Shown here: positions 1,614-35,673 of the stretch, piece by piece
Position numbering within the stretch: position 1 is the first letter of the stretch
How the letters are laid out: each line of letters opens with the position of its first letter
Source of the DNA: a virus
Taxonomy: Duplodnaviria > Heunggongvirae > Uroviricota > Caudoviricetes
IMG/VR virus record: IMGVR_UViG_2695420676_000012
Direction: 5' to 3' (one strand)
DNA length: 36,271 nucleotides
Notes under the pieces: generated by a model
Database searches by the model: none
What the model was told of the DNA's origin: nothing
What the model saw: the letters and a program-made list of their open reading frames with translations, nothing else
Made by a program: the position numbers and the translations under genes

Positions 1614-1653
1614 GCCCCTATCGTTATAATACGCGGTAGGGGCGTTTTTGTTT
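1614..1653 (+). terminator. terminator-like hairpin plus T-run
   Basis: 'gcccctA...Taggggc' inverted repeat followed by 'gtttttgttt'; overlaps the TTG-initiated extension of the recombinase ORF. Confidence 0.4.
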
Positions 1654-1662
1654 GGAAATGGT

Positions 1663-4832: not shown

Positions 4833-5178
4833 TCCACCGTGATTTTTTTGATCTGGAATCAATATGCGTAAAGGTTTTATATTTTCCTAAGCCGTATTGA
4901 GTAGGATATTTCCCATCAAGATAAGCATGAACAATATCAGGAGAAATTCCTTTCACCGATATGTCAGCCGCGCGGCCTCGAACGTGATAGCTATTGGCTG
5001 CCCCGCCTACATTCTTGTTATGAGTCGGGCAACGGTTGCCACTGTTAATAATCACTGGTTTACCGAAGTGCTCTCGTACATCCTCAAGAATCACCAGTAA
5101 TTCAGCGTCGATTGTATCATAATCACATTTTCCGCATTTACATTTAAATTCCTTGCGAGAAAAATGCTTACTTAACAT
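4825..5178 (-). CDS. peptidase M15 family zinc peptidase (D-Ala-D-Ala carboxypeptidase-like), probable endolysin
   Basis: 'FSRKEFKCKCGKC...' then 'SGNRCPTHNKNVGGAANSYHVRGRAADI', the hallmark SG(Y/N)R..HN...S.H..G.A.D signature; SD 'AAGGGGGT'. Confidence 0.75.
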   Translation of the reverse strand: MLSKHFSRKEFKCKCGKCDYDTIDAELLVILEDVREHFGKPVIINSGNRCPTHNKNVGGAANSYHVRGRAADISVKGISPDIVHAYLDGKYPTQYGLGKYKTFTHIDSRSKKSRWNG

Positions 5179-5187
5179 ATTACCCCC

Positions 5188-5535
5188 TTAGATATATTGC
5201 ATAAGATAGCCGGTAAATCTAAGTCCCTTGATATAATAGTTAGTTGTCCCTACACACACCGCGCGTGTATCGCCAATACAATTGAAGTTGTAAGGATTAA
5301 CTACATCAATCTCCTGCCCTACACGAAAGCGATACTTAGGACGTTTAGCGAGTGTCGCAACACAAAACACTAGCCCGTTACCATCATCGCGGATCATCTG
5401 CTTGAATTGTTTATGTTGGACTCTCTTCGCCTCAAAATCATAGGTCATTGATTCTGGGCTAATGCCATTGATAAAAATACCGGAAAGCTGGTCGACCGGA
5501 TAAGTAGGAAATTCAGTGAAAATATTTTTAGCCAT
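5188..5535 (-). CDS. hypothetical protein (115 aa)
   Basis: ORF with SD 'GGGGGT' 6-7 nt before ATG; no recognisable motif. Confidence 0.5.
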   Translation of the reverse strand: MAKNIFTEFPTYPVDQLSGIFINGISPESMTYDFEAKRVQHKQFKQMIRDDGNGLVFCVATLAKRPKYRFRVGQEIDVVNPYNFNCIGDTRAVCVGTTNYYIKGLRFTGYLMQYI

Positions 5536-5573
5536 GTTATACCCCCATAAGTTTCTATGAGGGTATTTATGGA

Positions 5574-6257
5574 TTAAACGTATTTCATGCGCGATTTAAT
5601 GTGCTTATTGATGTTTTCAAGCATCATTGCTTCGTTGCTTTCCCACGATCCTAGCGTCGAATAACGAGTAGAAATTTTATCCGATTTAACGGCAACAATT
5701 CGCTTGCTCTGTTTCTGTATGCGTTTCTCTAAGCGACGTTTTGCCACCGCCGATCCATTCCTAGCGCGTTTGGTTCGGGATTTCTTAGGCTTGTACTTCT
5801 TCATGATAAAAGTCCCTTCCTTGTTCTCTACCTTGATGAAGTTGCCGTTTTCGAGGTTACGCATCATCTTACCGCCTTTGATGGCCTTAATGTTCCCGTG
5901 GGCGTCTAAGACCTTACCGTTGGCGATTGGAACTAGCTTATTGATTTTGCCCCCATCGAAATAGTGTTTCAGATAGTCGTCCTGACTGCCGATCTTCTTA
6001 TCCTTATCCCTTGCGCCCTTGATGAAGATTTGGTGTCTCGTCCCTGATCGGTTCTTGTAGTTGGTATTACCTACAGCTTGCTGAGTCCAGCGAGTAGGTC
6101 TATCAACATTCTTGTTAATCTTCTTCTGGAGTGCTCTGGAAGCAAAGATCGCCCCTTCCCCTATCGCCCTTTCGAATGTATCGGTTGCCTTTTCAGACCA
6201 TTGCCTCAACGCTTTCTTAGTCCTTAGAGCGTTTCGTTTATTGGTACTGGTTGCCAT
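5574..6257 (-). CDS. highly basic (K/R-rich) hypothetical protein, 227 aa
   Basis: ORF with SD 'AGGGGG'; start ATG overlaps the stop of the upstream small ORF (TAAcATG). Confidence 0.5.
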   Translation of the reverse strand: MATSTNKRNALRTKKALRQWSEKATDTFERAIGEGAIFASRALQKKINKNVDRPTRWTQQAVGNTNYKNRSGTRHQIFIKGARDKDKKIGSQDDYLKHYFDGGKINKLVPIANGKVLDAHGNIKAIKGGKMMRNLENGNFIKVENKEGTFIMKKYKPKKSRTKRARNGSAVAKRRLEKRIQKQSKRIVAVKSDKISTRYSTLGSWESNEAMMLENINKHIKSRMKYV

Positions 6258-6258
6258 G

Positions 6259-6429
6259 TTAGCCCCCTAATAACGAAAAGACCCCCGCCAGTGTCCTTAG
6301 CAATTGTTCATCCACGGTCATAGCCGGGAGTTCAAGCCCAAAGGACGTTAGCAGAGGTCTAATAGCTACGTTATAAGTGAGGGCGACAATCAAGAGATAA
6401 CCAAAATATTTCTTAAGTTTATTCTTCAT
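6259..6429 (-). CDS. small membrane protein (56 aa), not in the ORF track; holin-like size
   Basis: Manual translation 'MKNKLKKYFGYLLIVALTYNVAIRPLLTSFGLELPAMTVDEQLLRTLAGVFSLLGG'; SD 'AAAGGGGTG' upstream. Confidence 0.35.
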   Translation of the reverse strand: MKNKLKKYFGYLLIVALTYNVAIRPLLTSFGLELPAMTVDEQLLRTLAGVFSLLGG

Positions 6430-6447
6430 ATATTCACCCCTTTATTA

Positions 6448-6726
6448 TTATTTTTGTTTGAGTATGTCGAGAACTTGGTCAAATTTGGCGTCCATCGCAA
6501 CCACTTTCTTCTCTATACCGTGTAGTGTTTGTTCCATTTGGTAAACACGTTCAGCAATCTGAGTATGGTTATTCTGCATCGTCTCAAACTTCTGGTTTAA
6601 CAATGCGTCGCTGGATTCCAATTTCGACAATCTATTTTCTGTAGCTAATTGATTTCGGTGAAGTCTCCAAAGCCCACCACAAATTAAGGCGATAACACCG
6701 ATACCGCCATATATAATTTCAGTCAT
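6448..6726 (-). CDS. membrane-anchored coiled-coil protein (92 aa; i-spanin-like topology)
   Basis: N-terminal TM 'IIYGGIGVIALICGGLW' followed by coiled-coil-like region; SD 'GGGGG' before ATG. Confidence 0.5.
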   Translation of the reverse strand: MTEIIYGGIGVIALICGGLWRLHRNQLATENRLSKLESSDALLNQKFETMQNNHTQIAERVYQMEQTLHGIEKKVVAMDAKFDQVLDILKQK

Positions 6727-9800: not shown

Positions 9801-10578
9801 ATGAATCAACGTTAATATTTTCAATCGGTACACTAAGACCATACTTTGTATTTGTCAGATAATGGAAAATCTGGTCCACGCCGTTAGTGCTAGCCTCAAT
9901 AGCATTGGTTTCAAGGTTACGAATCTTTAAGCCCATAACATCGACCGCTACCTGGCTATTAGGCTGGAGAATATCAACACCAGCAGCCAAAGATTTGTCA
10001 TCACGACGTAAAACAATACACATGGTCGCAATGCCGTTACCCTGATACCGATCATCCCAATCAGCGCCCAAATGATGTTTAGCTAAATCCAATGCAGTGT
10101 TAGGATTTTTACCCGTGCGAAACTCGACTTCTAAAACTTTGCGGTATTCGTCTTTAATGTTTCCTTTATCGAGAATGCCATCACGAATTGTCATATTCTG
10201 GCTAATGAGAACGTTTTTATTATCGATGTGCAGTGCTTTAAAGTGATCGATCTCACCTTCGGCAATAGCAAAAATTTGTACCAGCTTGTTATTTTCACGC
10301 TGTGAAATTGCCTTGTAAACGCAGATTGCACCAGTTCGGGTAGTACCGAAAAGAACGGGTAAAACTGTCTTAGGATCGTTTGATGTTCCTAGTGTCACCG
10401 CATTATCTGGGCTTTGTACTTTAGGTGTTTTTGGTGCGCCTACAGTGGAAGCGATCAAGGTCATTGCACCAGCAGCCATACCGATAGCGACTGCGGTCAT
10501 AACAGAAAATGTTGCAGCAGCAGCCATCCCAGCAGACGCACCAGCAATAACCGCGCCTACCAATATTTCAAATCCCAT
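6832..10578 (-). CDS. central tail fibre / host-specificity protein (lambda gpJ-like), 1248 aa
   Basis: Size and position after a K-like gene; C-terminal ~110 aa ('DDHPFDRQIV...VIDMPAG...TGISVS') resemble my recollection of the lambda J receptor-binding end; SD 'GGGGGTG'. Confidence 0.8.
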   Translation of the reverse strand: MGFEILVGAVIAGASAGMAAAATFSVMTAVAIGMAAGAMTLIASTVGAPKTPKVQSPDNAVTLGTSNDPKTVLPVLFGTTRTGAICVYKAISQRENNKLVQIFAIAEGEIDHFKALHIDNKNVLISQNMTIRDGILDKGNIKDEYRKVLEVEFRTGKNPNTALDLAKHHLGADWDDRYQGNGIATMCIVLRRDDKSLAAGVDILQPNSQVAVDVMGLKIRNLETNAIEASTNGVDQIFHYLTNTKYGLSVPIENINVDSFLKVRKQVRQMDLHSNGACDPNASFKENLTSLMQTFGGVMFESFGRITLKLDAPDIVKHTFNEDNIMMGKVSLKTGGTNGYFNTINAMYQEPSIDYSEQMLRYPADAENDATIRQDGRIIAKDIEYRFVKSKAQIDKLASVERNKSRITQVISFMTTDAFTAEVWDVISVTYDELKLNNSLWRITAIDRSIDSGIAGMMTITATEYNSQVYTDLNYAATPDNRPTGLPDSMTVQKPTNFRIKATGETIHGKNVTLTWDAPEDFNRYGFQIDYRVSGSPNWIKLGQTSQQIFNINALAKDRSYDYRVCAFGIIARSEWVELVNQNPTVTYELPTPVIRIKNQGSTPGTFEGNDLIIEWENQQQLDVMINGEANKFSDLFEAYIIKVTNKAGKSIQYRTRDPESWTYTLDMNQFNGLSRELTVEVSVKGYNNSESAPARLVAINPQHKPMKGFSARGGFNTAFVSWADDVEHDYAGSIIQYATDNTFSDARAVTTNSVSHTSFDLADGDYYIRGAHYDIFGMDDAVWSEPYFMQMKSTISWDDQDKEALEDLIGLQDRLDETIADAIAQAGANADAKIDAMHKQITTETGQTVQASADTLKSLIATSEQASATKIDQVKAELKGDITKEVSASATTLKQAIATSEAASASKIDQVRVEMDGKIAGVNQEADVKIDALKGTINSKYNLAVNADGRVAGIHMSATNDPAEPTRIIFTADKIAVAPQDGSEVCPFGIEDNKVYLDNAMIRNAAIGTAQISDASITTAKIGTAQINGAHIQHAQIGTGHIIDGSIDNAKIGNYIQSYNWNGNDGWYIGKDGTCHFRHANIRGHLVADSGEMNNVTINSSCRILGMLDANQVRGDFVKVVGRSFPHRQPNWPDGAITVRVEDDHPFDRQIVIPAIHHNGSVRRGESSDHWDTCRLIVKKNGGVLYDRTATSGCMYSGVIDMPAGHGAVTMTFEVYCKGVNNYNPSAYISDLTVMVTKKAATGISVS

Positions 10579-10997
10579 TATTCACCCCCGAATCTATAAA
10601 CTTGTTCATAGTCAATGTCTGAAACAGGAATGGTCATCCAGATACCATCTTCTTCAACAAGGCCATAACCGGAATAATGAGGAACTACGGAATAATATTT
10701 GCGGTTTCCTAATTTGTGGGCTGTGACCAGTAAGTCGCCGTCCTGTAAATCATCAGTGACTAATTTGAAATGTTTCTTAATTGGTTGAAGGATATTTGAA
10801 TACCCGCTTAATTCTTTGCAGATTTTCAAGCCTTCTTCTTTAGTTGAATATTTTTTATAAAGAGAATTATATAGGTCAGTACCAGCGAGAATATCGATGA
10901 TCTTACATGCAATTAGATTGCAATCATTCTCGCCTTGAACGAACTCCTGACCTATTAAAGAATTGATGTAATCGGTGATAAGCCTAGTTTTTAGCAT
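10578..10997 (-). CDS. tail tip protein with NlpC/P60-like motifs (lambda gpK-like)
   Basis: 'ENDCNLIACKI' (Cys) and later 'VVPHYSGYG' (His); start set at the ATG with SD GGAGGT (track ORF extends to 11153 through a start lacking an SD). Confidence 0.45.
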   Translation of the reverse strand: MLKTRLITDYINSLIGQEFVQGENDCNLIACKIIDILAGTDLYNSLYKKYSTKEEGLKICKELSGYSNILQPIKKHFKLVTDDLQDGDLLVTAHKLGNRKYYSVVPHYSGYGLVEEDGIWMTIPVSDIDYEQVYRFGGE

Positions 10998-11043
10998 GTT
11001 GAATACCTCCATGCTGTTATTTACTAGGCTTAGGGAGAAGGGA

Positions 11044-11697
11044 TTATTTCTTCGATGAATGCCACTTGCTTTCCGATTGCCAGCGCCCGGTCCTTGAGAA
11101 GAATAGATCGTTCTCGTTTCCAACATAGGAACGGTGGATACCATCGGAGGCATGACTACGAGCGTTTTTATCTAGAACTTCCCAGATACTATTAAGCTGA
11201 AATTCTGATTCGTTTTTACACTCATCATCTTCATGTTCGATGTTAATACCGATGGAATCGACTACCCCACGGAAAACAGGGTAAGTGGTTTCAACCTTGC
11301 CCGTGTTGGGGTTAAGGAAAACCATCTCGATTTTCACATCGGATTTATCGAATTGCTTGTTTCGAATGAGAGTAATGTATTCTTCGCGAACGTTAGAAAC
11401 GGTTACGTTAATCCCGTTGTTGTTGATCTCCTTCTCTTCGGTATTCGATGAGATTTGAAGAAAATCACCCGTTGCGAGATACGTAAATCCGTTATAGTCC
11501 AAATCGAAATACCCATCTGTAAGCCGTAGAACGTCCCCTGACGCTGTTATCACTTCGATAATGTGAAACATCGATCCAGTGGAAAAAAGCTGCGGTAGCG
11601 TCAATCTAGACACGTTCTGACCTGTCTGGTCGTTGTAGACCTCGATGAAGTCCAGATTAGTGCATAGTTTGCTGAATGATTCCTGAATAGTTGCCAT
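11044..11697 (-). CDS. minor tail protein (lambda gpL-like by position and size)
   Basis: ~218 aa between the M-like and K-like genes; start ATG overlaps the upstream stop (TAATG); weak resemblance to gpL. Confidence 0.4.
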   Translation of the reverse strand: MATIQESFSKLCTNLDFIEVYNDQTGQNVSRLTLPQLFSTGSMFHIIEVITASGDVLRLTDGYFDLDYNGFTYLATGDFLQISSNTEEKEINNNGINVTVSNVREEYITLIRNKQFDKSDVKIEMVFLNPNTGKVETTYPVFRGVVDSIGINIEHEDDECKNESEFQLNSIWEVLDKNARSHASDGIHRSYVGNENDLFFSRTGRWQSESKWHSSKK

Positions 11698-12257
11698 TAT
11701 ACATTCTCCACTAATTCGAATTTCATCTTGCCAATCTGGGCGATCTTCCAATCGATATTTTCAGTTTTGAGAACAAATTCACCTTCTACGTTCTGATACT
11801 TGATCACCTCACCAGCCAGGACGTTTTGACGCAAGTTAGGGAAGAGTTTCATTTCACCACCTGATTTCACATCTTCGGTGATCGTGTAGATTTTCTTGTG
11901 GTTCTCAAACTGGATGATAGTTCCCGCTTTCAGTGTTCCGGTGAAGTTGGAGAGTCTTACCTTACGCCCACCGCGAGCAGTACCAGCAGCAGCCGTTACC
12001 ATCTGGCGTACATCGCCTGTATATTTTGAAAAGTAAGACAGTGGCACACTAAAAGGACGACCAAAAAGGTGACGTGCTACAAATTCTTTTACTTCGTTAA
12101 TATCCTGAGCCATGAAATTAGCTGTAAATTCTGCTTCATAAAAATGAATACCAGTAAAGCGACGCTGGAACTTACCAGAAATAGATTGCGCCTTGAAGAA
12201 AGGCTGTTTTGATTTAAGAGTAAAATCTGTGATTTTAATATTCTTGGATTTGAACAT
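11697..12257 (-). CDS. minor/distal tail protein (gpM/Dit position), 186 aa
   Basis: First gene after the tape measure; SD 'GGGGG' lies in the 3' arm of the 12263-12302 hairpin. Confidence 0.4.
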   Translation of the reverse strand: MFKSKNIKITDFTLKSKQPFFKAQSISGKFQRRFTGIHFYEAEFTANFMAQDINEVKEFVARHLFGRPFSVPLSYFSKYTGDVRQMVTAAAGTARGGRKVRLSNFTGTLKAGTIIQFENHKKIYTITEDVKSGGEMKLFPNLRQNVLAGEVIKYQNVEGEFVLKTENIDWKIAQIGKMKFELVENV

Positions 12258-26338: not shown

Positions 26339-28246
26339 TTAGAACGATGTTACCCAGCTACGGCCTCTATTTGGGCGTCTGGCGATGTTTTGACGTTGCG
26401 GTCGTGTGATTGGCTTAGTTTCTTCGATTTGCTCGTCAGATTGCGATTCAGGAGCTTTTACGGGTTCTTCTTTAACGCTGTTTAAGCTGTCTTTCATTGC
26501 AATGAGTTTATCCCATGACATTTTTGAAAGGACGTAGCGAGAAGCAGCATAGCTATAAACCAGACAGTCGAGAGCCTCGTTTCGGGTACTACCTGGATTT
26601 TTCACCCAACGAACACCAGTAGTAGTACGCTTGATGGATTCACTCAAAAGCTGATCGAGATAATCATCAGGAACGGTTTCTGATATTTCTAAGCCAATAT
26701 GAGGATTATCTTTCAGGTTTCTAACCAGCATTTCACGAACAGCGGATTTACCAACGTTAACGCCCAGCATAAGCAATTCATGACCACCTGTGCGGGTAGG
26801 TTTAACCGGAATCACTGGAGCATTACCAGATGAACTACCTTTAATAGCGTGTAGGTTCTTCCACTTACCACAAATACGGTATCCGGCTTGAGTGAATCGA
26901 CCGTTTGATGTATCGAGGAAGCTGGCGAGCATTGGCACACGTTCACCATTAACGTTATAGAATTTGGTTTTCTTGAAGTTAACCAGACGATCCCATACAG
27001 GTGATTCGTATCGTTCACAGTTATGATCGTAAAAGCTACGGTGATCCAGAATGTAAACCTTATCTTTCGCTACACCTAAGATGGTAGATTCTGCGCGATC
27101 CAATTGCTGGTCAATTCCTGAGCACAAGAAAATCACGTCATCAGGGATATTCTCGATAGAAACATCTGTTTTGAGTTGTTCCAGTTCATTTGCTTCTACT
27201 GCCGTGTCCTGATCATCGTATACCTTGCCTAACACGGTGTTATAAAATGATTGTAAATCAAAGGATTGCCACGCATGACTAAAATCAACCACACAAGCGC
27301 GGATCGTGCTGAAAGGTGAATACAGACGGCTAATCCAGAATCCTGCTACTTCACTTTCACGGGTTGCTCTCCACTCGCCTTGCGCTACTGCCCTGATTCG
27401 TTCCCCTTCTGTCCATGCGTTCTTACAGTGGGGGCAAATATAACGAGCGGTATCAGGATCGGGTAAGTTCTTACCATCGATGTTACGCCATTCAAATTGA
27501 ACGTTTTCCCACTCGATCACCTGGTGTTCCCCGCAATGAGGACACGGAACAAAAAACATACGCATATCGCTTGATAACCATTGCTGGTTAATGCTTCCGA
27601 GCTTACTGGTCGGGGTACTGGATACGACTAATCGGCCTTCATCGCCAAAGGTAGTTAAACGGTTAGCAGCCAGTGCCACCGGATCACCTTCTTCTGAGGC
27701 TGTAGCAGCATCGATTTCGTCTAGTAGTCCGACCTTTGCGGTCTTACCACGTAGGGTCGATGGACTGGTTAGCGATACCATGTACAGGAAGTGATTCGTT
27801 TTTAGCTGTAGCTGGTTATTGTTGTTAACCGCATTGCGATCATTCTTGTCTGTAACCACGTCTTTTAATGCATCACATGCTTCGATAGACGGTCGGATCT
27901 TACCAGCGAGATATTGAGACATTTCTTTAGCGGTTGATTGTCCGATAATCATATTGCATGGATCGTTAGCCATCTGGTTAAACAGGATGCCGTTCAAGAT
28001 GGTAGTCTTTCCGATCTGCGCACTGGTCATCAGAACATACTTTTTCTTGTTCTCAAGGAAAGGAGCATCAATCATACCTTTCTGGAATGACAGCAATTTA
28101 ACTTTATCCCCAGCTTGAGGACCATCTACCAGCACCATATTAGCTTCGCACCATTCAGAAGGAAGGAGTTTAGGCGGTGGCGTAATATATTTGGCTGCAT
28201 TTCTGAGAATCTTTTTTAATTTGGCCTTATTAGAAATTAGTTTCAT
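26339..28246 (-). CDS. terminase large subunit, lambda gpA family, 635 aa
   Basis: Walker-A-like 'AQIGKTT'; 'PCPHCGEHQ' and 'YICPHCK' zinc-finger-like motifs; 'GIDQQLDR'; '[14 protein letters not shown]'; order and spacing match gpA as I recall it. Confidence 0.9.
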
Positions 28247-28289
28247 GTAATTACCCTCATTACGAAATATGAAGGTATTTATTAAATTG

Positions 28290-28317
28290 TTGATTTTTTG
28301 ATAAATACGGGTATTAA
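28290..28317 (+). promoter_or_regulatory. sigma70-like promoter candidate for the plus-strand gene at 28334
   Basis: 'TTGATT'-16 nt-'TATTAA' in the divergent region between the terminase and 28334 genes. Confidence 0.3.
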
Positions 28318-28333
28318 GATTTAAGGGGGTTGT

Positions 28334-28936
28334 ATGCTAATTAATCAGCAACAAAGAGATGAATTAGAATTAGCCTTGTCTTGTACCGATCATGAATATC
28401 GTTTGCCAGTAAAACATAAGCACTTAAGGACTGATTACACAACATCCGGTTTTAGCCGTGAGGAAGCGAAAGAGATTTTAATAGAATTTTACCGTGATAA
28501 TGGTTATACAGACGTTCACAACTTCTTTAAGAAGCATAGAACATCACATACAGAGTTTCGGAGAGTCCGAGATTGGTTTGATTTTGATATCAAGCGTTAT
28601 TATCGCATTGATGACGGTCCTATCTATCGGTTGCAGTGGAAGCCGATCCGAGAAGTGTTGAAACAGAAGAGATTGAATCACGCTATTACACGCTATCGTA
28701 ACGAGGCTTTTAAGAAAGGCTATGGTGATACAAGGGAATTGTTTGTAGAACTCGCTAACGTGCGATATAGCCACTATTACAACGATCCTAAGTCCTTCTT
28801 CGAAGTGCTGCGCAAGGTTGATATAAGTCGGGGTACATACTATTCACGGTTGAAGAAGTACGGGATTAAGGCAGAGTTCTTTATGTCGGTTGACGATGGA
28901 GAACTTTTTCCTATAAAATGTAAGTCCTCTAAATAA
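28334..28936 (+). CDS. basic Tyr/Arg-rich protein with C-terminal HTH-like module, 200 aa
   Basis: C-terminus '[25 protein letters not shown]' resembles the two small HTH proteins at 28966 and 32781; SD 'AAGGGGG'. Confidence 0.5.
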
Positions 28937-28965
28937 AGGTGAACATTCACTTTAATTTGGAGAAA

Positions 28966-29196
28966 ATGACTATGACTACTAAAGCTACTCGCGGTCGCCC
29001 TGCCCGTTTTAATCGTGAACAACTGGCAGCGATTGTAAAAGCGTACTATCAAGCACCGAAAGGTAAAGAGAACAAAGAACGGGTATTAAATGAGCATGGC
29101 TTATCTATAGCCCAGCTATACAAATCCCTACATAAAGTTGATTTGAAATTCTTTGTTCAGGTTGACGGTGAAATGGTAGAAGCAACAGGAATTTGA
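28966..29196 (+). CDS. small HTH DNA-binding protein (RP.KF.RE...HTH module), ~76 aa
   Basis: 'GRPARFNREQLAAIVKAYY...HGLSIAQLYKSLHK...VQV'; start at ATG with SD 'GGAGAAA' (track ORF opens with GTG at 28939); paralog of 32781-32960. Confidence 0.5.
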   Translation: MTMTTKATRGRPARFNREQLAAIVKAYYQAPKGKENKERVLNEHGLSIAQLYKSLHKVDLKFFVQVDGEMVEATGI

Positions 29197-29202
29197 TTCT
29201 CT

Positions 29203-29233
29203 AGGCCAATCCTTCGGGGTTGGCCTTTTTTAT
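29203..29233 (+). terminator. Rho-independent terminator
   Basis: 'aggccaa-tccttcgggg-ttggcct' followed by 'tttttat' immediately after the 28966-29196 gene. Confidence 0.6.
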
Positions 29234-29237
29234 ATCC

Positions 29238-29453
29238 GCTCAAAACTGAGCACATCTCTAAGTCATTGATTCTTCCGATGAGTCCAGATTTGGACTGATC
29301 TATAGATGCCCTCAAAACTGAGGAGATGTGCTTAAAGTTCAGCGTATCTATCTAAGTGGTTGATTCTTTCGAGAAATTCAAACTTGAATCAATCGGCGCA
29401 AAACTGCGCTCATCTCTAACCTATTGATTCTTCCGATAAATCCAAATCTGGAT
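29238..29453. repeat. three tandem ~65-85-nt units each carrying two conserved hairpins with compensatory substitutions (candidate structured RNA / protein-binding array)
   Basis: Hairpin 1: GCTCA-AAAC-TGAGC (29238), CCTCA-AAAC-TGAGG (29310), GCGCA-AAAC-TGCGC (29396). Hairpin 2: AGTCCA-GATT-TGGACT (29281), ATTCA-AACT-TGAAT (29376), ATCCA-AATC-TGGAT (29440). Conserved 'ttgattcttccgat' between them. Confidence 0.6.
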
Positions 29454-29465
29454 GCATCAGATACA

Positions 29466-29497
29466 AAAAAGCCCAGCGCAATTATGCGCCGGGCGAT
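29466..29497 (-). terminator. Rho-independent terminator for the minus-strand Rha-like operon
   Basis: Minus transcript 'gcccggcgc-auaau-gcgcugggc' followed by 'uuuuuu', directly after the 29501 stop. Confidence 0.5.
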
Positions 29498-29500
29498 TAA

Positions 29501-30334
29501 TCAGATCCCAAAATCAACAAGGGAAATTACGTTACCTGATTCACGAATCTGTTTAGCAGCTTTGTTTTGAATCAGAATAGTGTTATTTGGCTGCGGCAGT
29601 TTAAGAGTTGCTTTCTGTTCTTCTTCCAAAACGCCCAATTCAACCAGCACCGGAAGAACATCAACAGTAAACTCAAGCTGGTAATGAGCATTCATGCGGC
29701 AGAAAGACAGAGAAGAGTCATTAGCAACATACCCACACGGCTTGTTATTTTCATCATAGACGCGCTCAATGTAGCCAGCAGTACGTAAGGCCGTCAGTGC
29801 TTGTTTAACCTTCGTAGCGCCCTTTTTAGCGCCTAACAGACGTGTCATAGAATGGCTATCTACGGATTTGCGAATGTGTAGCTCAATCAGTTTTTTATTT
29901 TTGCGTTTTTCATCTAATGCCAGTTCGATCCAGTCGGTTTCTTCAAAGTCCGCATACGGGTTAACAGGAGTATTATTGGCGGTTTTCAGTTTCTCTTCCA
30001 GATAATTCCAACGGTCAACCAGTTGGCGAGTAAATTCCGGTACGTTTTGAGCAATCAAGACAATCGAATCTAAGCGACCTTGCTCACCCTCAAACACATA
30101 ATCTTTAACAGTAACAGCAAACCCTAAGTTATTGATTTTTTCGAAATTCTGCGTTGCAGGTTTTCGGATAACTTGGCGTTCAACCAGTCGGTTCATAGAA
30201 GTTTCAAGGTTTGAAAAACGAACTCCAATAAGGTCGGCAATTTCACGAAGAGTCATTTTTGCAACTTCGTTATCAACAACCAGAGACACGGAAGCAGTTT
30301 TAACAGCAGTATTCATAGTAGTAACAGTATTCAT
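29501..30334 (-). CDS. Rha-like phage regulatory protein (antirepressor-like), 277 aa
   Basis: N-terminal 'MTLREIADLIGVRFSNLETSMNRLVERQVI' resembles the Rha N-terminal DNA-binding motif; SD 'AAGGGG'. Confidence 0.45.
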   Translation of the reverse strand: MNTVTTMNTAVKTASVSLVVDNEVAKMTLREIADLIGVRFSNLETSMNRLVERQVIRKPATQNFEKINNLGFAVTVKDYVFEGEQGRLDSIVLIAQNVPEFTRQLVDRWNYLEEKLKTANNTPVNPYADFEETDWIELALDEKRKNKKLIELHIRKSVDSHSMTRLLGAKKGATKVKQALTALRTAGYIERVYDENNKPCGYVANDSSLSFCRMNAHYQLEFTVDVLPVLVELGVLEEEQKATLKLPQPNNTILIQNKAAKQIRESGNVISLVDFGI

Positions 30335-30423
30335 AGTAAAATTCCCCTTAAACGGTTTAGTGATATTGATCCTCCTAGTTCCGGCATCACCACCGGAACA
30401 TTTTTATTTATGATAGAAATTTA

Positions 30424-30756
30424 TTACCAATCGATTTCTACTTGGTCTTCTTCATAATAAGGAATCGCATATTCATAACGCCAATTTTCGATGATTTCAC
30501 GTTCTTCATTAGTAAGAAGGTGATTGTTAACTGGAGTCGCATTGTGATTACCAGCTTCGAATTGCTCGCGAACTTCCAGCATTGCATGAATACCAGTTAA
30601 GGTCATCAGATCAAACGGAACATGCATACTACGGGAGATAGTTTCACGGGATACACCCCAATCATTTTCTACATGGCTAGGGGTTACAGAAACGGTTTTG
30701 CCGGAGATTTTAACAGTCCAGTCATACAGGGATTTAGTGATGGTAAATTCTTTCAT
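30424..30756 (-). CDS. hypothetical protein, 110 aa
   Basis: ORF with SD 'AAGAGGA'. Confidence 0.5.
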   Translation of the reverse strand: MKEFTITKSLYDWTVKISGKTVSVTPSHVENDWGVSRETISRSMHVPFDLMTLTGIHAMLEVREQFEAGNHNATPVNNHLLTNEEREIIENWRYEYAIPYYEEDQVEIDW

Positions 30757-30802
30757 GTTACATCCTCTTTACAAATCTAGGTCAAATAGATTCAAAGTTG
30801 TC

Positions 30803-30830
30803 AAGTGCGATAATCATAAAAAAGTCAGAA
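30803..30830 (-). promoter_or_regulatory. sigma70-like promoter candidate (minus strand) inside an inverted TTGTCAA/TTGACAA pair
   Basis: Minus-strand 'TTGACA'-17 nt-'TATGAT'; plus strand shows 'ttgtcaa-tacccc-ttgacaa' inverted repeat at 30825-30847. Confidence 0.3.
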
Positions 30831-30876
30831 ATTTTTGTCAATACCCCTTGACAAGACGCCAAAGGGTTGACCTAAC

Positions 30877-31335
30877 TTACAGCATATCTAAGCCTTCATC
30901 GTAACCGTAGAAGCCACCGTGAGAAGAGAAACAGATTGGTGTGTAGTCGTCGTCATCTTCGTCTTGTTCATCTTCTTCTGGGGCTTCCTGAGCGGTTTCT
31001 TTACCATAATCAGCCATAATCTGGTCAAGATCGGCGATCCCATAGTAAGAGCCTAAATCAACGTCATATTCACGAACATCAAAAGGCAGGTCATCACGAA
31101 CAATAATTGCTGGAATATCGTTGTATTGAAGACGACCCTCATCAGTAAAACAGTCGATGATCACAGTAGGACGACCATTTCGTTTTAAAGCGTAGAAAGC
31201 AGTTGAGTAGTTGGAGTCTTCGGAATGACGAATGATGTTATAACCACGATGAGCGAAAACTTCTAGCATATGGAAGTTACCATAGTTTTCAGAGTCCAGA
31301 CCCAGAAGTACGAAAGGAGTTTTAGTATTGATCAT
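30877..31335 (-). CDS. hypothetical protein with strongly acidic C-terminal tract, ~152 aa
   Basis: Start placed at ATG with SD 'AGAGGA' (track ORF extends to 31365); C-terminal 'EEDEQDEDDDDY'. Confidence 0.5.
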   Translation of the reverse strand: MINTKTPFVLLGLDSENYGNFHMLEVFAHRGYNIIRHSEDSNYSTAFYALKRNGRPTVIIDCFTDEGRLQYNDIPAIIVRDDLPFDVREYDVDLGSYYGIADLDQIMADYGKETAQEAPEEDEQDEDDDDYTPICFSSHGGFYGYDEGLDML

Positions 31336-31355
31336 AGTGGTATCCTCTAAAAGAA

Positions 31356-31386
31356 AGTGAATCAAGTAAGTTCACTATTATTTATA
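31356..31386 (-). promoter_or_regulatory. TATAAATA box followed by GTGAA/TTCAC hairpin upstream of the 30877-31335 gene
   Basis: Minus-strand 'TTATAAATAatAGTGAActtacttgaTTCACT...AGAGGA...ATG'; same architecture as 4414-4456 and 32508-32537. Confidence 0.4.
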
Positions 31387-31588
31387 AAGAGAAAATTCTT
31401 GTTATTATGAAAGGTGATTGTATTCAGTCGGGCAAAGCCCTCCTTCATGATTTGATTAAATTATGATCAAAACGAAGAAGTATCTTTAGAATATAATAAT
31501 CTTTCTTTTGGAGAAATAATAATCAGGAAGTAATTTAGCAACCGAAGGTTGCAATCCCGAAGGGATACCAATACCTTTCATGATCATT

Positions 31589-31846
31589 AAAGTGATCTAG
31601 AATCATCTAGTAACCAGTTAACTACTATTATCTTCAAAGTGATTATTACTATCTTTCTAGAATCAGTTAGTAACTAGTATTAAATCCCTTTCGAGAAAAT
31701 CCTTTCAGAAGTGATTCTCGATGCCACGCAGTGGCGTCGCAGACGTTTGAGAGTGAGCGAAGCGAGCGAGCAAACTAGTTAATTCCTTCTAAGACCATCT
31801 AGTATCATCTAGTTTAAATTAGTTGTTACTAGAAGTAATTGGTTAG
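31589..31846. repeat. CTAG-rich imperfect direct/palindromic repeats in an ORF-free region
   Basis: 'aaagtgat' x3 (31589, 31636, 31708); 'tctagaatca(t/g)(c/t)tagtaac(c/t)agt' x2 plus variant 'tctaagaccatctagtatcatctag'; palindromes 'agttaact', 'actagt'. Confidence 0.45.
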
Positions 31847-32017
31847 CGCTTCGCGCAGTCGGGCTACGCCCTCCTAATTATCTTTTTGGTTATTTGTTGT
31901 TTTTAGTTTTACACATGAGCGTAGCGAATGTGTTATATAATATCTATGCACGCCCGATCCCCCGCTTTTACCCCTCGCTAAGTTAATGTTTTATAAAGAG
32001 TTTTTATCACCAATCCT

Positions 32018-32216
32018 TTTCAGGGGCAAAAATGAGGGGCAAAAATTAGATTTTCAGGGGCAATTATTGGCATTTCAGGGGCAAAAATGAGGGGCAAAAT
32101 CACTGTTTCCCAGAATTTCAGGGGCAAAAATAGTAGGTTTCAGGGGCAAAAATGGGATAGTAGAATCTTGGGGATTTTATTCGGGGGCAAAAATTCAGAA
32201 TTTCAGGGGCAATTCC
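32018..32216. repeat. direct-repeat (iteron-like) array: 9 copies of (T)TCAGGGGCAA(A)AAT core
   Basis: 'GGGGCAA' at 32023, 32036, 32057, 32078, 32091, 32121, 32143, 32184, 32206; exact 27-nt duplicate 'tttcaggggcaaaaatgaggggcaaaa' at 32018 and 32073; spacings 13/21/21/13/30/22/41/22 nt. Confidence 0.8.
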
Positions 32217-32408
32217 CATCAAATATTTTGATAGAAAATTCTTGTATATTATTTAATCAAAAAATCACCAAAAAGTGGCGTAAGTTAATGATTTAAAAAG
32301 AATTGTCAAAAGGTCTCCGTGCTATAATAGGTTATAAAGGTTGATAATCCTGATCTACAATTTTCAAACAAAAATTTTGATAGTCATTTCTCGCTTAGGT
32401 CAAGTGCA

Positions 32409-32437
32409 TTGACAACTGTCAAGGATTATTTTATACT
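32409..32437 (+). promoter_or_regulatory. consensus sigma70 promoter with palindromic -35 (TTGACA-AC-TGTCAA)
   Basis: 'TTGACA' (32409-32414), 17-nt spacer, 'TATACT' (32432-32437); -35 lies in a perfect inverted repeat. Confidence 0.55.
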
Positions 32438-32507
32438 TTTTCTCACTGGTGGGGGTTGAAATTTTCTAAACAGTCCCCATATAGATGATAAGCAAGAATT
32501 TCCACGT

Positions 32508-32537
32508 TATAAATACATGTGTGAAATGATTGTTCAC
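32508..32537 (+). promoter_or_regulatory. TATAAATA box followed by GTGAA/TTCAC hairpin
   Basis: 'TATAAATA' 32508-32515, hairpin 'gtgaa-atgattg-ttcac' 32521-32537. Confidence 0.4.
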
Positions 32538-32574
32538 TTCTGAAAATCTCCTGATTCACTGCTAATTCATACAT

Positions 32575-32600
32575 CACTGGTTAGATATACAGTGCTTTTT
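32575..32600 (+). terminator. terminator-like hairpin plus T-run in the leader region
   Basis: 'cactg-gttagatata-cagtg' followed by 'cttttt'. Confidence 0.4.
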
Positions 32601-32658
32601 CGGTTGAATATTGTACGAATTGATTAATAATTAATCTTCTCTTTAGCAATTCGTGCTC

Positions 32659-32686
32659 CCACTGATCGGATATACAGTGGTTTTAC
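32659..32686 (+). terminator. terminator-like hairpin plus T-run
   Basis: 'ccactg-atcggatata-cagtgg' followed by 'tttta...gggttttc'. Confidence 0.4.
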
Positions 32687-32707
32687 AGGGTTTTCTGACA
32701 ATCATTT

Positions 32708-32747
32708 TATAAATACAAGTGTTCAGAGCGAAATGCTCTTTTTTTAA
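32708..32747 (+). promoter_or_regulatory. TATAAATA box followed by hairpin plus T7 run (attenuator-like) before the 32781 gene
   Basis: 'TATAAATA' 32708-32715; 'agagc-gaaat-gctct' 32725-32739; 'ttttttt' 32740-32746. Confidence 0.4.
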
Positions 32748-32780
32748 GAAATTATTAATCCACATGTGAGGAATCGACTG

Positions 32781-32960
32781 ATGGCTAGACCTGTTAAGTT
32801 CACTCGTGAAATGATTGTTGATATTGCTAAACGCTTTTACAGCGACACTGAGCGAGGCGGGGAAAACTTCTTTAAGAAGGAAGGAATTGATAGAAGCGGA
32901 TTCTACAAGCTAATGAAGAAATACGAAATTCAGGTAAAGATTAACGTTCAAGTTTGTTAA
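32781..32960 (+). CDS. small HTH DNA-binding protein, paralog of 28966-29196 (~59 aa)
   Basis: 'ARPVKFTREMIVDIAKRFY...GIDRSGFYKLMKKYEIQVKINVQV'; start at ATG with SD 'GAGGA' (track ORF opens with GTG at 32766). Confidence 0.5.
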   Translation: MARPVKFTREMIVDIAKRFYSDTERGGENFFKKEGIDRSGFYKLMKKYEIQVKINVQVC

Positions 32961-33074
32961 TCCACTTTCACTGAGAATTATATGATGGCTTTAAAAAAGA
33001 AAAAGCCTCCCTTGTTGCAGCAAAGGAGGCTTGAAATGAACAATTAAAACTAACTTTCCACAGGAGTATTTATA

Positions 33075-34037
33075 ATGTTATTTTCCGCTAACTTTTTCAC
33101 TAACGAAGTAACCAACGCTAAAGCAGTTATCAAATTTGGCACCGAAGCAAACAAGAAGATTCAGCCGAAAGTTGTTGCTCATGTTTCCTTTGCGCAGCAG
33201 AAATCCGCTTTCGCTGGCTTTAAAGCACATCGTGAAGCACTGATCGCGGCTGGCTTTGGTGTTGACGGTAAACTGCCTAACGGCATTCGTAAAGCAATCG
33301 ACCGCGTTAAACCTGCTAAAGACGTTGCAGTAGACCACATCGTTACTTTCACCGTTAAGAACTCTTCTGAACTGTTCCACCTAGTGATTGCTGGTGATAC
33401 TGCTATCGTTTCCGCTCCTAACATGGATTTTCAGGATACCGCTGATTGCAACATTACCTTTGGTCGTCGTAAAGAAGTTACCGGAAAAGCTAAACTGAAC
33501 TTCACCAAATCCGGCAATCCTTACTTTGCTGTATTCTTTAACAGCCACGCTACTGAGAAAGAAGTAGTAGAACTGGTTGCATATGAAGGTGAAGAAAAAG
33601 CACGTATTGAATCTTGCGACGCTTTCGTAGAACTGGAAGCACAGGTTAATGCTGTTTCTCCGGTTGCTGTTGAAGATCGTTTCTCTGCACTGGAAGCACA
33701 GATCGCAGAACTGAAAGCTGCACTGAAAGAAAAAGACCAGATCATCGAAGCACAGAAAGCTGAGATTGAAGAACTGAAAGCTAAAGAAGTTGCTCCGGTT
33801 GCTGTTGAAGCAGATCAGGAAGTTGAATCTAAAGACTTCTTTACTCAAGCGGTTGAATCTAAAGACAAACAAGCTCTTTGGATTCTGCTTAACGAAAAGC
33901 GTACTGTTGCAGACGTTGCAGAATGGAACAAATACCTGATTAAGAAAAATGGTTCTTCCGTTCAATTCATCGATTTAATGACAGTTAAAGTTTTTGATGC
34001 GTTCGAAAATGTGTTCGACGTTCGCAAAGCAGCTTAA
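33075..34037 (+). CDS. hypothetical abundant protein with coiled-coil and internal 'SPVAVE/APVAVE' repeat, 320 aa
   Basis: Strong high-expression codon bias (ctg, cgt, gct, gaa, aaa); SD 'GGAG'; downstream of the consensus promoter. Confidence 0.6.
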   Translation: MLFSANFFTNEVTNAKAVIKFGTEANKKIQPKVVAHVSFAQQKSAFAGFKAHREALIAAGFGVDGKLPNGIRKAIDRVKPAKDVAVDHIVTFTVKNSSELFHLVIAGDTAIVSAPNMDFQDTADCNITFGRRKEVTGKAKLNFTKSGNPYFAVFFNSHATEKEVVELVAYEGEEKARIESCDAFVELEAQVNAVSPVAVEDRFSALEAQIAELKAALKEKDQIIEAQKAEIEELKAKEVAPVAVEADQEVESKDFFTQAVESKDKQALWILLNEKRTVADVAEWNKYLIKKNGSSVQFIDLMTVKVFDAFENVFDVRKAA

Positions 34038-35121: not shown

Positions 35122-35673
35122 TTAAGACACATCAAATTCATCGTCTTCTTCTGGTTCTTGTTCCGGTTCATCGATTAATGGTAATTCTTCTTCCTCGTCA
35201 TCGCCTAAATCCGCATTTTCGAACAAGTCCCCTACTTCATTTAAACGACGCTCGATGATCTCCCTTAGCTTATTCTTCAATGTTTTCTGATCAGTGGCAG
35301 ATTCGAGAATTTCTAAAGCGTCGATTGTGGCGATCTGCAAAATAGTCTGTTTCACCTTTCCGCAATATTCCGCTAGCTCCTGCTCAACATACCCGACCGG
35401 AATCAGGAGATTCATTGCTTCCTGGTTCTCTCGTTCGATAGCGTCAGCCTCGCCTCGCGCCTTGCGTAGTTTCTCTTGTTGGATTTGGGCTTGTACATCC
35501 ACTTCCCGCAAAGGATTGATTATGTTGGTGAGTATCCACTTAATGGCTAGATCGCGAGGACAACGGCGGGTATTAGAATTGAATGGCAAACCGCGTTCTT
35601 TCCATTTAGTGACAGCCGGAAGTGAATAACCATACATTTTCGATAATTCTGTTAGTGTAATTTCTGCGGACAC
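35122..35673 (-). CDS. Nu1-like small terminase subunit candidate (winged-HTH N-terminus, acidic C-terminus), 183 aa
   Basis: N-terminal 'LTELSKMYGYSLPAVTKWKERGLPF...LAIKWIL' resembles my recollection of lambda Nu1 'KKQLADIFGASIRTIQNWQEQGMPV...VIKWY'; size matches Nu1 (~181 aa); GTG start with SD 'GGAGGA'. Confidence 0.45.
   Translation of the reverse strand: MSAEITLTELSKMYGYSLPAVTKWKERGLPFNSNTRRCPRDLAIKWILTNIINPLREVDVQAQIQQEKLRKARGEADAIERENQEAMNLLIPVGYVEQELAEYCGKVKQTILQIATIDALEILESATDQKTLKNKLREIIERRLNEVGDLFENADLGDDEEEELPLIDEPEQEPEEDDEFDVS

Follow-up and report, generated by a model that had tools for sequence, protein, structure and literature searches.

Introduction

Small DNA-binding proteins are common in phages. 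In phage lambda, Cro and CII are small helix-turn-helix (HTH) regulators whose genes lie just before that of the iteron-binding initiator O. Several of the directionality factors that work with serine integrases are small basic proteins, and small terminase subunits often carry an N-terminal HTH of the GRP type. Domains with two HTHs, as they occur in the paired domain, in the N-termini of Tc1/mariner and IS630 transposases and in the N-terminal domain of CENP-B, read two adjacent major grooves.

In the present study, we analysed a window of 36,271 nucleotides from a Caudoviricetes record of IMG/VR (IMGVR_UViG_2695420676_000012), which carries three genes, here called A, B and C, whose products make up a subfamily outside Pfam, with a predicted beta-hairpin and with one tandem-fused member. 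The first-pass annotation of this DNA had proposed that the three proteins share an HTH-like segment and are paralogous, and had named a promoter palindrome and several nearby repeats as their possible targets.

Results

Genomic context of the three genes

The window is essentially one prophage of ~35 kb. Copies of the region 28200-33100 with 88-96% identity are present in 58 of 5,426 complete Escherichia coli genomes, and in E. coli PD23 the prophage splits hicB. A large serine recombinase gene (1648-3342) lies at the left end of the prophage, the stretch from 3.4 to 28.2 kb is filled by lysis, tail, head and portal genes and by the gene of a gpA-type large terminase, TerL (26339-28246, minus strand), and the remaining genes are found in 28.3-36.3 kb. 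Among the latter is the gene of a Nu1-like small terminase, TerS (35122-35673, minus strand; phrog_57, E=1e-14), which is located 7 kb from TerL and encodes an N-terminal sequence of the Nu1 winged-helix type. No deposited phage shows similarity in its DNA, and for TerL the closest match has 43% identity. A tblastn search of 50,697 deposited phage genomes with A, B, a C-like protein (P0090) and two proteins of the X type described below gave no match, Rfam returned no family for 28.0-36.3 kb, and a literature search found nothing about this prophage. Among 17 ORFs outside the structural block, no Cro/CI-type regulator was detected, and the only other DNA-binding candidates were a Rha-like protein and the Nu1-like TerS; the structural block itself (3.4-26 kb) holds a further ~17 small ORFs.

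Gene A (28334..28936, plus strand) was defined from its ORF, alignment and AlphaFold model and encodes a protein of 200 aa with a pI of 9.45. A distance of 88 bp separates its start from the divergent TerL gene, and it has 42 homologues with identities of 41-99%, every one of them annotated as hypothetical. The protein opens with a conserved helix (M followed by 16 further residues), after which come two predicted modules of HTH plus beta-hairpin that are joined by a basic linker of ~25 aa. Module 1 (28445..28645, plus strand) covers approximately aa 38-104 (36-104 in hhalign) and module 2 (28709..28924, plus strand) approximately aa 126-197 (126-200 in hhalign), both delimited by BLASTP, hhalign, HMM and secondary structure. 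AlphaFold predicts helices at residues 42-56, 61-67 and 72-82 and strands at 86-92 and 97-99 for the former, and helices at 134-147, 152-161 and 166-175 with a strand at 180-186 for the latter. Module 2 is the segment of A that the first-pass annotation had noticed.

Gene B (28972..29196, plus strand) encodes 74 aa with a pI of 9.75, or 76 aa if translation starts at 28966. The shorter form is the likelier one, as all 13 homologues in the databases are called at 74-75 aa and begin at the second ATG (28972). The protein is predicted to consist of a basic N-terminal arm (T-R-G-R-P-A-R-F), three helices (15-27, 32-41 and 46-55) and a beta-hairpin (60-64 and 67-71). A and B are probably co-transcribed. 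A terminator scan places a terminator-like hairpin of the intrinsic type with a run of T at the end of the A-B unit (29203..29226, plus strand), and this element stands directly 3' of B in every locus examined, including the divergent loci L003 and L005.

Gene C (32781..32960, plus strand), supported as an ORF and by alignments, encodes 59 aa with a pI of 9.61 and heads a unit in which it is followed by a gene for 320 aa, called X hereafter, and a gene for 113 aa. The C protein is a single module with the arm M-A-R-P-V-K-F-T-R-E and one predicted C-terminal strand, and 25 homologues were collected. All three proteins are hence basic (pI 9.45-9.75), and all three are under purifying selection, with dN/dS values of 0.14-0.18 for A, 0.12-0.19 for B and 0.04-0.26 for C (0.04-0.26 overall).

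The homologues stem from E. coli, Shigella, Salmonella, Proteus and gut metagenomes and are all described as hypothetical. The genes A, B and C belong to the core set of a mosaic prophage lineage and keep their synteny across E. coli, Salmonella, Proteus and metagenome prophages, and the present analysis gives names and domain boundaries to three such hypothetical core genes. The order in the lineage of the window is TerL (minus strand), A-B (plus), an optional Rha-like gene with small genes, an acidic protein of 152-163 aa (minus), ~1.4 kb of non-coding DNA, C with the gene for ~320 aa and sometimes a coiled-coil gene for ~100 aa (plus), and TerS (minus). In the more distant prophage L044, where gene A appears as two genes owing to either a frameshift or a wrong gene call, the iteron array, A, B, C and a 377-aa homologue of X follow each other on one strand. 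This single-strand order indicates that A-B and C belong to one early block that was rearranged in the lineage of the window: the order iterons, A, B, C, X is present in one lineage, and A-B would have moved next to TerL in the other.

Four copies of one module

The claim that B and C align end to end is borne out by BLASTP (28% identity over 57 aa, E=2e-7), and the C-terminal half of A does share the module, with 33% identity to C over 54 aa (A 133-186, E=3e-6) and a further match of residues 148-192 to B (E=0.01). What had not been foreseen is a second copy at residues 40-93 of A, of which residues 40-87 match C with E=6e-4; as A carries two, there are four copies of the module in three proteins.

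For the profile-profile comparison with hhalign, B, C, A-module 1 and A-module 2 were each represented by a family alignment of their homologues. Six of the six comparisons were significant (85-97% probability, E 1e-10 to 6e-6), with module 1 matching B at E=2.7e-9 and C at E=1.7e-9, and module 2 matching C at E=8e-10 and module 1 at E=5e-6. The four modules are paralogous, and so are A, B and C, as the first-pass annotation had proposed.

The joint alignment of the four sub-families is clean. Its common pattern begins with (R)RP-x-(K/R)-F-(T/N)-R-E, continues with a helix 1 that ends in Y-Y, a loop and F-F-K-x-x-G-I-S, and closes with helix 3 (F-Y-K-x-x-K-K) and a beta strand of the K-F-F-V-Q-V-D-G-E type. 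The RP arm itself occurs in B and C only and is absent from both modules of A. In 24 sequences of B and C its R, P and F do not vary, and conservation in these two proteins is highest in the RP-x-x-F arm and in helix 3 (F-Y-K-x-x-K-K). A module HMM, applied to the window translated in all six frames, returned the four copies (domain i-E 1.2e-25 for A module 1) and no fifth, the next best hit having E=1. Judged by these sequence comparisons, A, B and C are a lineage-specific family that was previously unannotated and that belongs to no curated family.

Predicted fold and family assignment

AlphaFold predicts three helices followed by a beta-hairpin for B (pLDDT 84.3) and for each of the two modules of A (pLDDT 75.7 and pTM 0.65 for the whole chain, 85-91 within the modules, with low confidence in the first 31 residues and in the linker). 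Searches of Pfam and PHROG with A, B and C gave nothing above threshold, and no member of the family reaches a Pfam gathering threshold. B scores 13.5 bits (E=0.089) against HTH_Tnp_1 (PF01527), for which the gathering threshold is 24.1 bits, and relatives score 12.9-15.8 bits, likewise below 24.1; A and C have no match to this family. Four proteins (P0074, P0090, the B-like protein of L044 and B itself) give sub-threshold alignments of ~46 positions that each begin at profile position 1-3. For HTH_7 (PF02796), there is no match in A, B or C and one relative at 14.9 bits, and with E values up to 1, neither the three proteins nor eight relatives matched an XRE-type HTH or HTH_3 in Pfam or PHROG.

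The module profile yielded only 29 matches when it was searched against 1.84 billion representative proteins. Those outside the family are proteins of 4 to 8 tandem repeats (P0083, P0084, P0086-P0089 and P0095; E 1e-15 to 1e-5 in hmmsearch), and these tandem-repeat proteins score in Pfam as HTH_Tnp_1, HTH_23, HTH_28 and HTH_7 with E values of 1e-23 to 1e-40. In hhalign, the module matches the repeat units of three tandem-HTH proteins with 93-96% probability and HTH_7-positive repeat units with 93% probability.

Structure searches were less informative. Foldseek found nothing significant for the models of B and A in PDB and BFVD (best E=0.2-1). For B against PDB, the best E value was 1.1 and the top 50 contained HigA antitoxins and, as the most frequent neighbours, homeodomains, all at non-significant scores, the domain being very small; sequence and profile searches of the PDB with the family gave spurious matches only. 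The similarity to HTH domains that the first-pass annotation had expected thus comes from sequence profiles and not from the structure search, while its description of the shared segment as an HTH is upheld by the AlphaFold models and by the profile link to the HTH_Tnp_1, HTH_23, HTH_28 and HTH_7 proteins. Taken together, the profile matches, the hhalign results and the recurring sub-threshold HTH_Tnp_1 alignments show the HTH class of the module at the level of sequence: it is a predicted three-helix HTH of the transposase/resolvase type (homeodomain-like) with an added beta-hairpin.

Candidate DNA sites for A, B and C

Which DNA the three proteins might bind was addressed by co-variation in 34 IMG/VR loci, a highly mosaic set in which A, B, C and the N-terminal 150 aa of X were clustered and the upstream array was typed. 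None of the targets that the first-pass annotation had put forward follows the alleles of the family. The three repeats of ~65 bp after B (29230-29460) vary from 0 to 3 copies beside a single B allele and are lacking from L003 and L005; they were rejected as operators. The CTAG repeats are partly deleted in loci in which A, B and C are unchanged.

Upstream of C, a sigma-70-type promoter (32409..32437, plus strand; TTGACA, 17 nt, TATACT, with 11 of 12 positions matching in a promoter scan) opens a leader of ~370 nt; the -35 element of this promoter doubles as an arm of the palindrome TTGACA-AC-TGTCAA (32409-32422). In loci of 'class I' the arms of the palindrome are conserved and the centre is variable. 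The palindrome is found together with all three C alleles and is missing in some loci with the same C allele, and in L008, L013 and L025 the leader is wholly replaced without a change of the C allele, which is that of L036. TTGACA-NN-TGTCAA is unlinked to the C allele and finds no support as an operator of C.

Two further elements are conserved. The box GATAAATACGGGTATTA (28300..28316, plus strand), just upstream of the ribosome-binding site of A, is kept in all aligned lineages, among them that of the Salmonella locus L003, whose A shares just 47% identity. This box, which is one of the TATAAATA type, probably forms the core of the A-B promoter. The TATAAATA box of the window, 74 nt upstream of the start codon of C, forms one stretch (32708..32745, plus strand) with the hairpin AGAGC-GAAAT-GCTCT and a T7 run (32725-32745). 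It is the only 10-mer common to the early regions of four divergent lineages, and in three of these it stands 73-74 nt from the C start. The motif ATCAAAAAATCA, present in the A promoter and at 32255, is not conserved among loci and was dropped. Overall, the co-variation and conservation analysis of the loci yielded no operator for A, B or C.

The iterons follow the 320-aa protein X

A GGGGCAA iteron array of ~10 units, phased at 11 or 21-22 bp, is located at 32018..32212 (plus strand). Gene X (33075..34037, plus strand), directly after C, encodes 320 aa with a variable N-terminal domain and a coiled coil, and has no family in Pfam or PHROG. Among the co-variation loci, which are related and hence not independent samples, the iteron type matches the N-terminal cluster of X in 33 of 33 cases without exception. 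Cluster X1 goes with GGGGCAA (19 loci), X2 with GTGTAGG (12 loci), X3 with ACTAGWAA (2 loci) and X4 with CGGGGA (2 loci), and the Salmonella locus L003 has a further array, TAGGGAT at 11-bp phase, with a further X protein. The array that accompanies the X2 allele reads TAGTGTAGG.

The B clusters and the three C clusters, in contrast, each occur with several iteron types, and C1 and C2 are each seen with X1 as well as with X2. Since C sits between the array and X, the match between the latter two is not due to adjacency alone. From the match to the X cluster and the independence from the B and C clusters, it follows that the iterons belong to X and not to the HTH family; the GGGGCAA array, also suggested as a target, was accordingly set aside as a specificity partner of A, B or C. 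As to which protein binds the repeats, attention thereby shifts to the 320-aa protein, which, on this co-variation, is the probable iteron-binding protein of the cassette.

A similar arrangement on a T4-like contig

A C-like protein of 64 aa (P0090), 43% identical to C, is encoded on a T4-like metagenome contig of 168 kb (L042), between the homologues of gene 3 and gene 2. Its gene is followed by those of a 204-aa homologue of X (E=1e-16 against the X of L003, with the X of L005 also homologous) and of an 80-aa coiled-coil protein, Y. Upstream of P0090, the contig carries GC-rich hairpins, ~14 AGCGATTA repeats at ~11-bp phase, a promoter and a hairpin with a T run; GC-rich hairpins are also present in the window, at 31.5-31.9 kb. 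The protein after C in L044 is homologous to X as well (E=2e-11). The arrangement in the T4-like contig indicates that C, X, Y and the iterons travel together. When IMG/VR was scanned for further T4-like contigs with C, nothing but the same prophage family came up.

In T4, the iteron-bearing origin oriE is located in gene 5 and is poorly understood. The L042 cassette lies a few kb from the position of T4 oriE. The T4 genes repEA and repEB, considered as equivalents, are ORFs of 50 and 45 aa antisense to gene 5 and are not homologues.

Discussion

We are inclined, with modest confidence, to regard A, B and C as sequence-specific DNA-binding proteins that act as early transcription regulators of an iteron-cassette phage, where the part of transcription regulator is drawn solely from analogy and from the order of the genes. 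If the modules work like Hin-type domains, the R-P-x-K/R-F arm of B and C would occupy the minor groove, and the major groove would be read by helix 3. With its two modules, A would be a covalent pseudo-dimer or a bipartite reader of two adjacent half-sites, whereas B and C would need pairing, possibly via the hairpin. The three proteins would most likely control the early, replication and late units at the level of transcription, in the manner in which Cro and CII precede O in lambda, and the recognition of the iterons would belong to X and not to A, B or C.

The T4-like contig allows a wider speculation. GC-rich hairpins, 11-bp-phased iterons, a promoter with a proximal hairpin, a C-type HTH protein, X and the coiled-coil protein Y might form a portable 'iteron cassette' that moves between temperate enterobacterial prophages and virulent T4-like phages, with C, A and B as the generic component for any pair of iteron and X. 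The N-terminal domain of X would then match the iterons, and the C-type protein could be, for example, an activator or antiterminator that licenses the expression of X, or transcription at the origin, regardless of the allele. We consider this proposal doubtful as it stands; if true, the cassette would be a novel type of module for origin function and control that phages can exchange. The cassette that a T4-like phage also carries could be relevant to phage origins of the iteron type, and from our point of view it is a more interesting lead than the HTH family itself.

A different reading gives A, B and C an accessory function in replication initiation: they would bind or bend the origin DNA beside the iterons or help X to assemble, with, for example, the CTAG repeats or the GC-rich hairpins at 31.5-31.9 kb as their sites. 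Consistent with this, C always sits between the iteron array and X, immediately before the latter, the T4-like phage included, the array of L044 directly precedes A-B-C-X, and the prophage ORFs that were scanned contain no other recognisable replication genes. However, the C and B alleles assort freely against both the iteron type and the X type, which speaks against an allele-specific partnership, the CTAG repeats can be partly deleted while A, B and C stay unchanged, and the role of X as replication initiator is itself only putative. We hence regard a function of this kind as unlikely.

Decidedly less probable is that the modules are degenerate HTHs that have ceased to bind DNA and act as protein-protein adaptors, for instance like an anti-repressor or as binders of RNA polymerase. 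One could cite for it that the operator search came out empty, that Foldseek placed no DNA-binding protein close to the models and that the RP arm was lost from both modules of A. Against it, the proteins are basic, B and C are best conserved in the R-P-x-x-F arm and in helix 3, and the nearest sequence relatives are canonical DNA-binding HTH repeats.

The large serine recombinase (1648-3342) of a prophage that splits hicB in E. coli PD23 raises the question whether B or C is its recombination directionality factor (excisionase), all the more as such small basic proteins serve several serine integrases and as the HTH and hairpin resemble the layout of Xis and HTH_17, in the latter case through one weak match (E=0.034) of the B-like protein of L044. 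This assignment is very improbable: a C-like gene is present in a virulent T4-like phage that shows no visible integration function in the stretch examined, ~25 kb of the prophage map separate the genes from the integrase, which is adjoined by three small ORFs with no assigned function, and three paralogues exceed the needs of excision. Least credible of all is that A and B are cos-binding terminase partners that confer DNA-packaging specificity, a thought suggested by the 88 bp between the A start and the divergent gpA-type TerL gene and by the frequency of N-terminal GRP-type HTHs in small terminases, but countered by the transcription of A and B away from TerL, by their position upstream of C and X and not beside TerL in L044, and by the separate Nu1-like TerS (35122-35673; phrog_57, E=1e-14), which matches the module profile with 0.05% probability in hhalign. 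An identity of A or B as the small terminase itself was rejected on account of this unrelated TerS.

For the early regulators that we take A, B and C to be, the comparison with known systems can be drawn at the level of the fold and at that of gene order. HTH_Tnp_1, the HTH of IS3-family transposases of the OrfA type, is the sole Pfam family that recurs among the weak matches of the module proteins, and it shares with them the basic N-terminal stretch, the F-(S/T)-x-E motif and a three-helix HTH of ~50 aa. The module proteins differ in that they stand alone, carry an extra C-terminal beta-hairpin and, for A, are tandemly duplicated, and their scores of 13-16 bits stay below the threshold of 24.1. 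The insertion-sequence context is missing too, as A, B and C adjoin TerL, a Rha-like gene and the 320-aa gene, with no transposase in loci of the window type. With the Resolvase/Hin-type HTH (HTH_7) and the homeodomain-like domains HTH_23/HTH_28, the modules have in common a G-R-P arm before helix 1 (R-G-R-P in B) and a recognition helix of the type G-I-S-x-x-T-x-Y-(K/R), but they lack a recombinase catalytic domain, remain sub-threshold in Pfam and possess the additional beta-hairpin.

The winged helices of the Xis/AlpA/MerR group (HTH_17, PF12728) likewise have a recognition helix followed by a hairpin, with the sequence hydrophobic-x-V-x-G-x-hydrophobic, but two helices precede the wing there and three precede the hairpin here. 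A resembles the bipartite two-HTH domains in having two three-helix HTH modules per chain, and one distant match of the family, P0088, scores for CENP-B_N and HTH_Tnp_IS630. It differs from them in that A itself has no significant match in sequence or fold and that its modules end in a beta-hairpin. With respect to gene order, finally, the closest likeness is to lambda Cro and CII. Although the HTH class is another one, and although the iterons lie upstream of the operon here and inside the initiator gene in lambda, in both cases small basic HTH proteins stand at the head of an early operon, before a gene whose product matches the iterons.

Iteron type and the 320-aa protein family

The gene for C, a small basic protein with a helix-turn-helix (HTH) and β-hairpin module, is preceded in the window by an iteron array with an 11-bp phase (32018-32212) and followed by a gene for a protein of ~320 aa (33075-34037). 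Four types of these 11-bp-phased arrays lie upstream of C, namely GGGGCAA, GTGTAGG, CGGGGA and ACTAGWAA, and a fifth type, TAGGGAT, is present in the Salmonella locus L003. When loci L001 and L005-L040 plus the window were compared, the iteron type and the allele found at the N-terminal end of the ~320-aa gene agreed in 33 of 33 loci, while the C gene, which is located between the two, assorted independently of both. From our point of view, this pattern of sequence variation points to the 320-aa family as the probable iteron-binding, initiator-like protein.

A cassette in L042, a 168-kb T4-like metagenome contig, is inserted between the homologues of gene 3 and gene 2 (4900-6625). Its DNA comprises GC-rich hairpins, ~14 AGCGATTA repeats and a promoter, and it encodes a C-like HTH protein of 64 aa, a 204-aa homologue of the ~320-aa protein and a coiled-coil protein of 80 aa. 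The cassette and the 31.5-34.4 kb region of the window are one and the same module.

Promoter-like sequences and the leader of C

A stretch of 75 bp in the window (31451-31525) shares 84% identity with DNA located between genes in RB49-like (Krischvirus) phages, and in RB49 a similar sequence comes again ~150 bp beyond the matching one. The stretch contains a TATAAT and is oriented toward the iteron region. Every locus of this prophage lineage has kept it, and it probably represents a shared early promoter.

The leader of C (32409-32780, ~370 nt) has a consensus-like promoter at its head and is retained in most loci. It harbors several hairpins, two of them of the CACTG...CAGTG form, as well as a terminator-like hairpin with T7 just 5' of the ribosome-binding site of C; no Rfam match to this leader was found. 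In some loci it is swapped for an alternative with two perfect tandem TTGACA/TATAAT promoters.

Boxes of the form TATAAATA, an 8-mer identical to the T4 late-promoter consensus, occur in the window at 943(+), 4456(-), 28300(+), 31386(-), 32508(+), 32708(+) and 35927(+), with a variant at 28276(-) upstream of the large terminase gene. They are positioned 15-75 nt before the start of a gene and lack a matching -35 element; in many cases AGTG and a hairpin come next. The box ~74 nt before C is the sole 10-mer kept across four divergent lineages. Although the genome-wide count with up to one mismatch is not above chance (24 observed versus 22 expected), the placement and conservation of the boxes are non-random.

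Repeats and other proteins

Between the convergent terminators of the gene for B, another small protein with the module, and a Rha-like gene, the window carries three repeats of ~65 bp (29230-29460), each with a GC hairpin, TTGATTCTTCCGAT and a small palindrome. Their copy number varies from 0 to 3 among otherwise near-identical loci, and they behave like small insertable repeat elements.

A protein of 152-205 aa, for which no family match was found, is encoded in the window (30877-31365, -) and in the more distant prophage L044 (3877-4494, -). Its C-terminal tail is extremely acidic, with a D/E run that leads into Y-x-P-I and then an end rich in aromatic residues. The protein is a conserved feature of the left border of the non-coding region. 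L044 also carries a retron-like or defence-like reverse transcriptase-TIR gene at its end (10543-12174).

The module profile further matched proteins of 270-980 aa in which a similar HTH unit is repeated in tandem, with four to eight copies per protein (P0083, P0084, P0086-P0089, P0092, P0095, P0098 and P0101), several of which have the common N-terminus M-N-I-L-T-x-N-F-L-T-N-x-N-K-I-Y-F-S-G.

Terminase gene arrangement

The whole 7-kb early block lies between the Nu1-like small terminase gene (35122-35673, -), which has its own terminators, and the gene for the gpA-type large terminase (26339-28246, -). For lambda-type packaging genes, such a separation of the small and large terminase is unusual.
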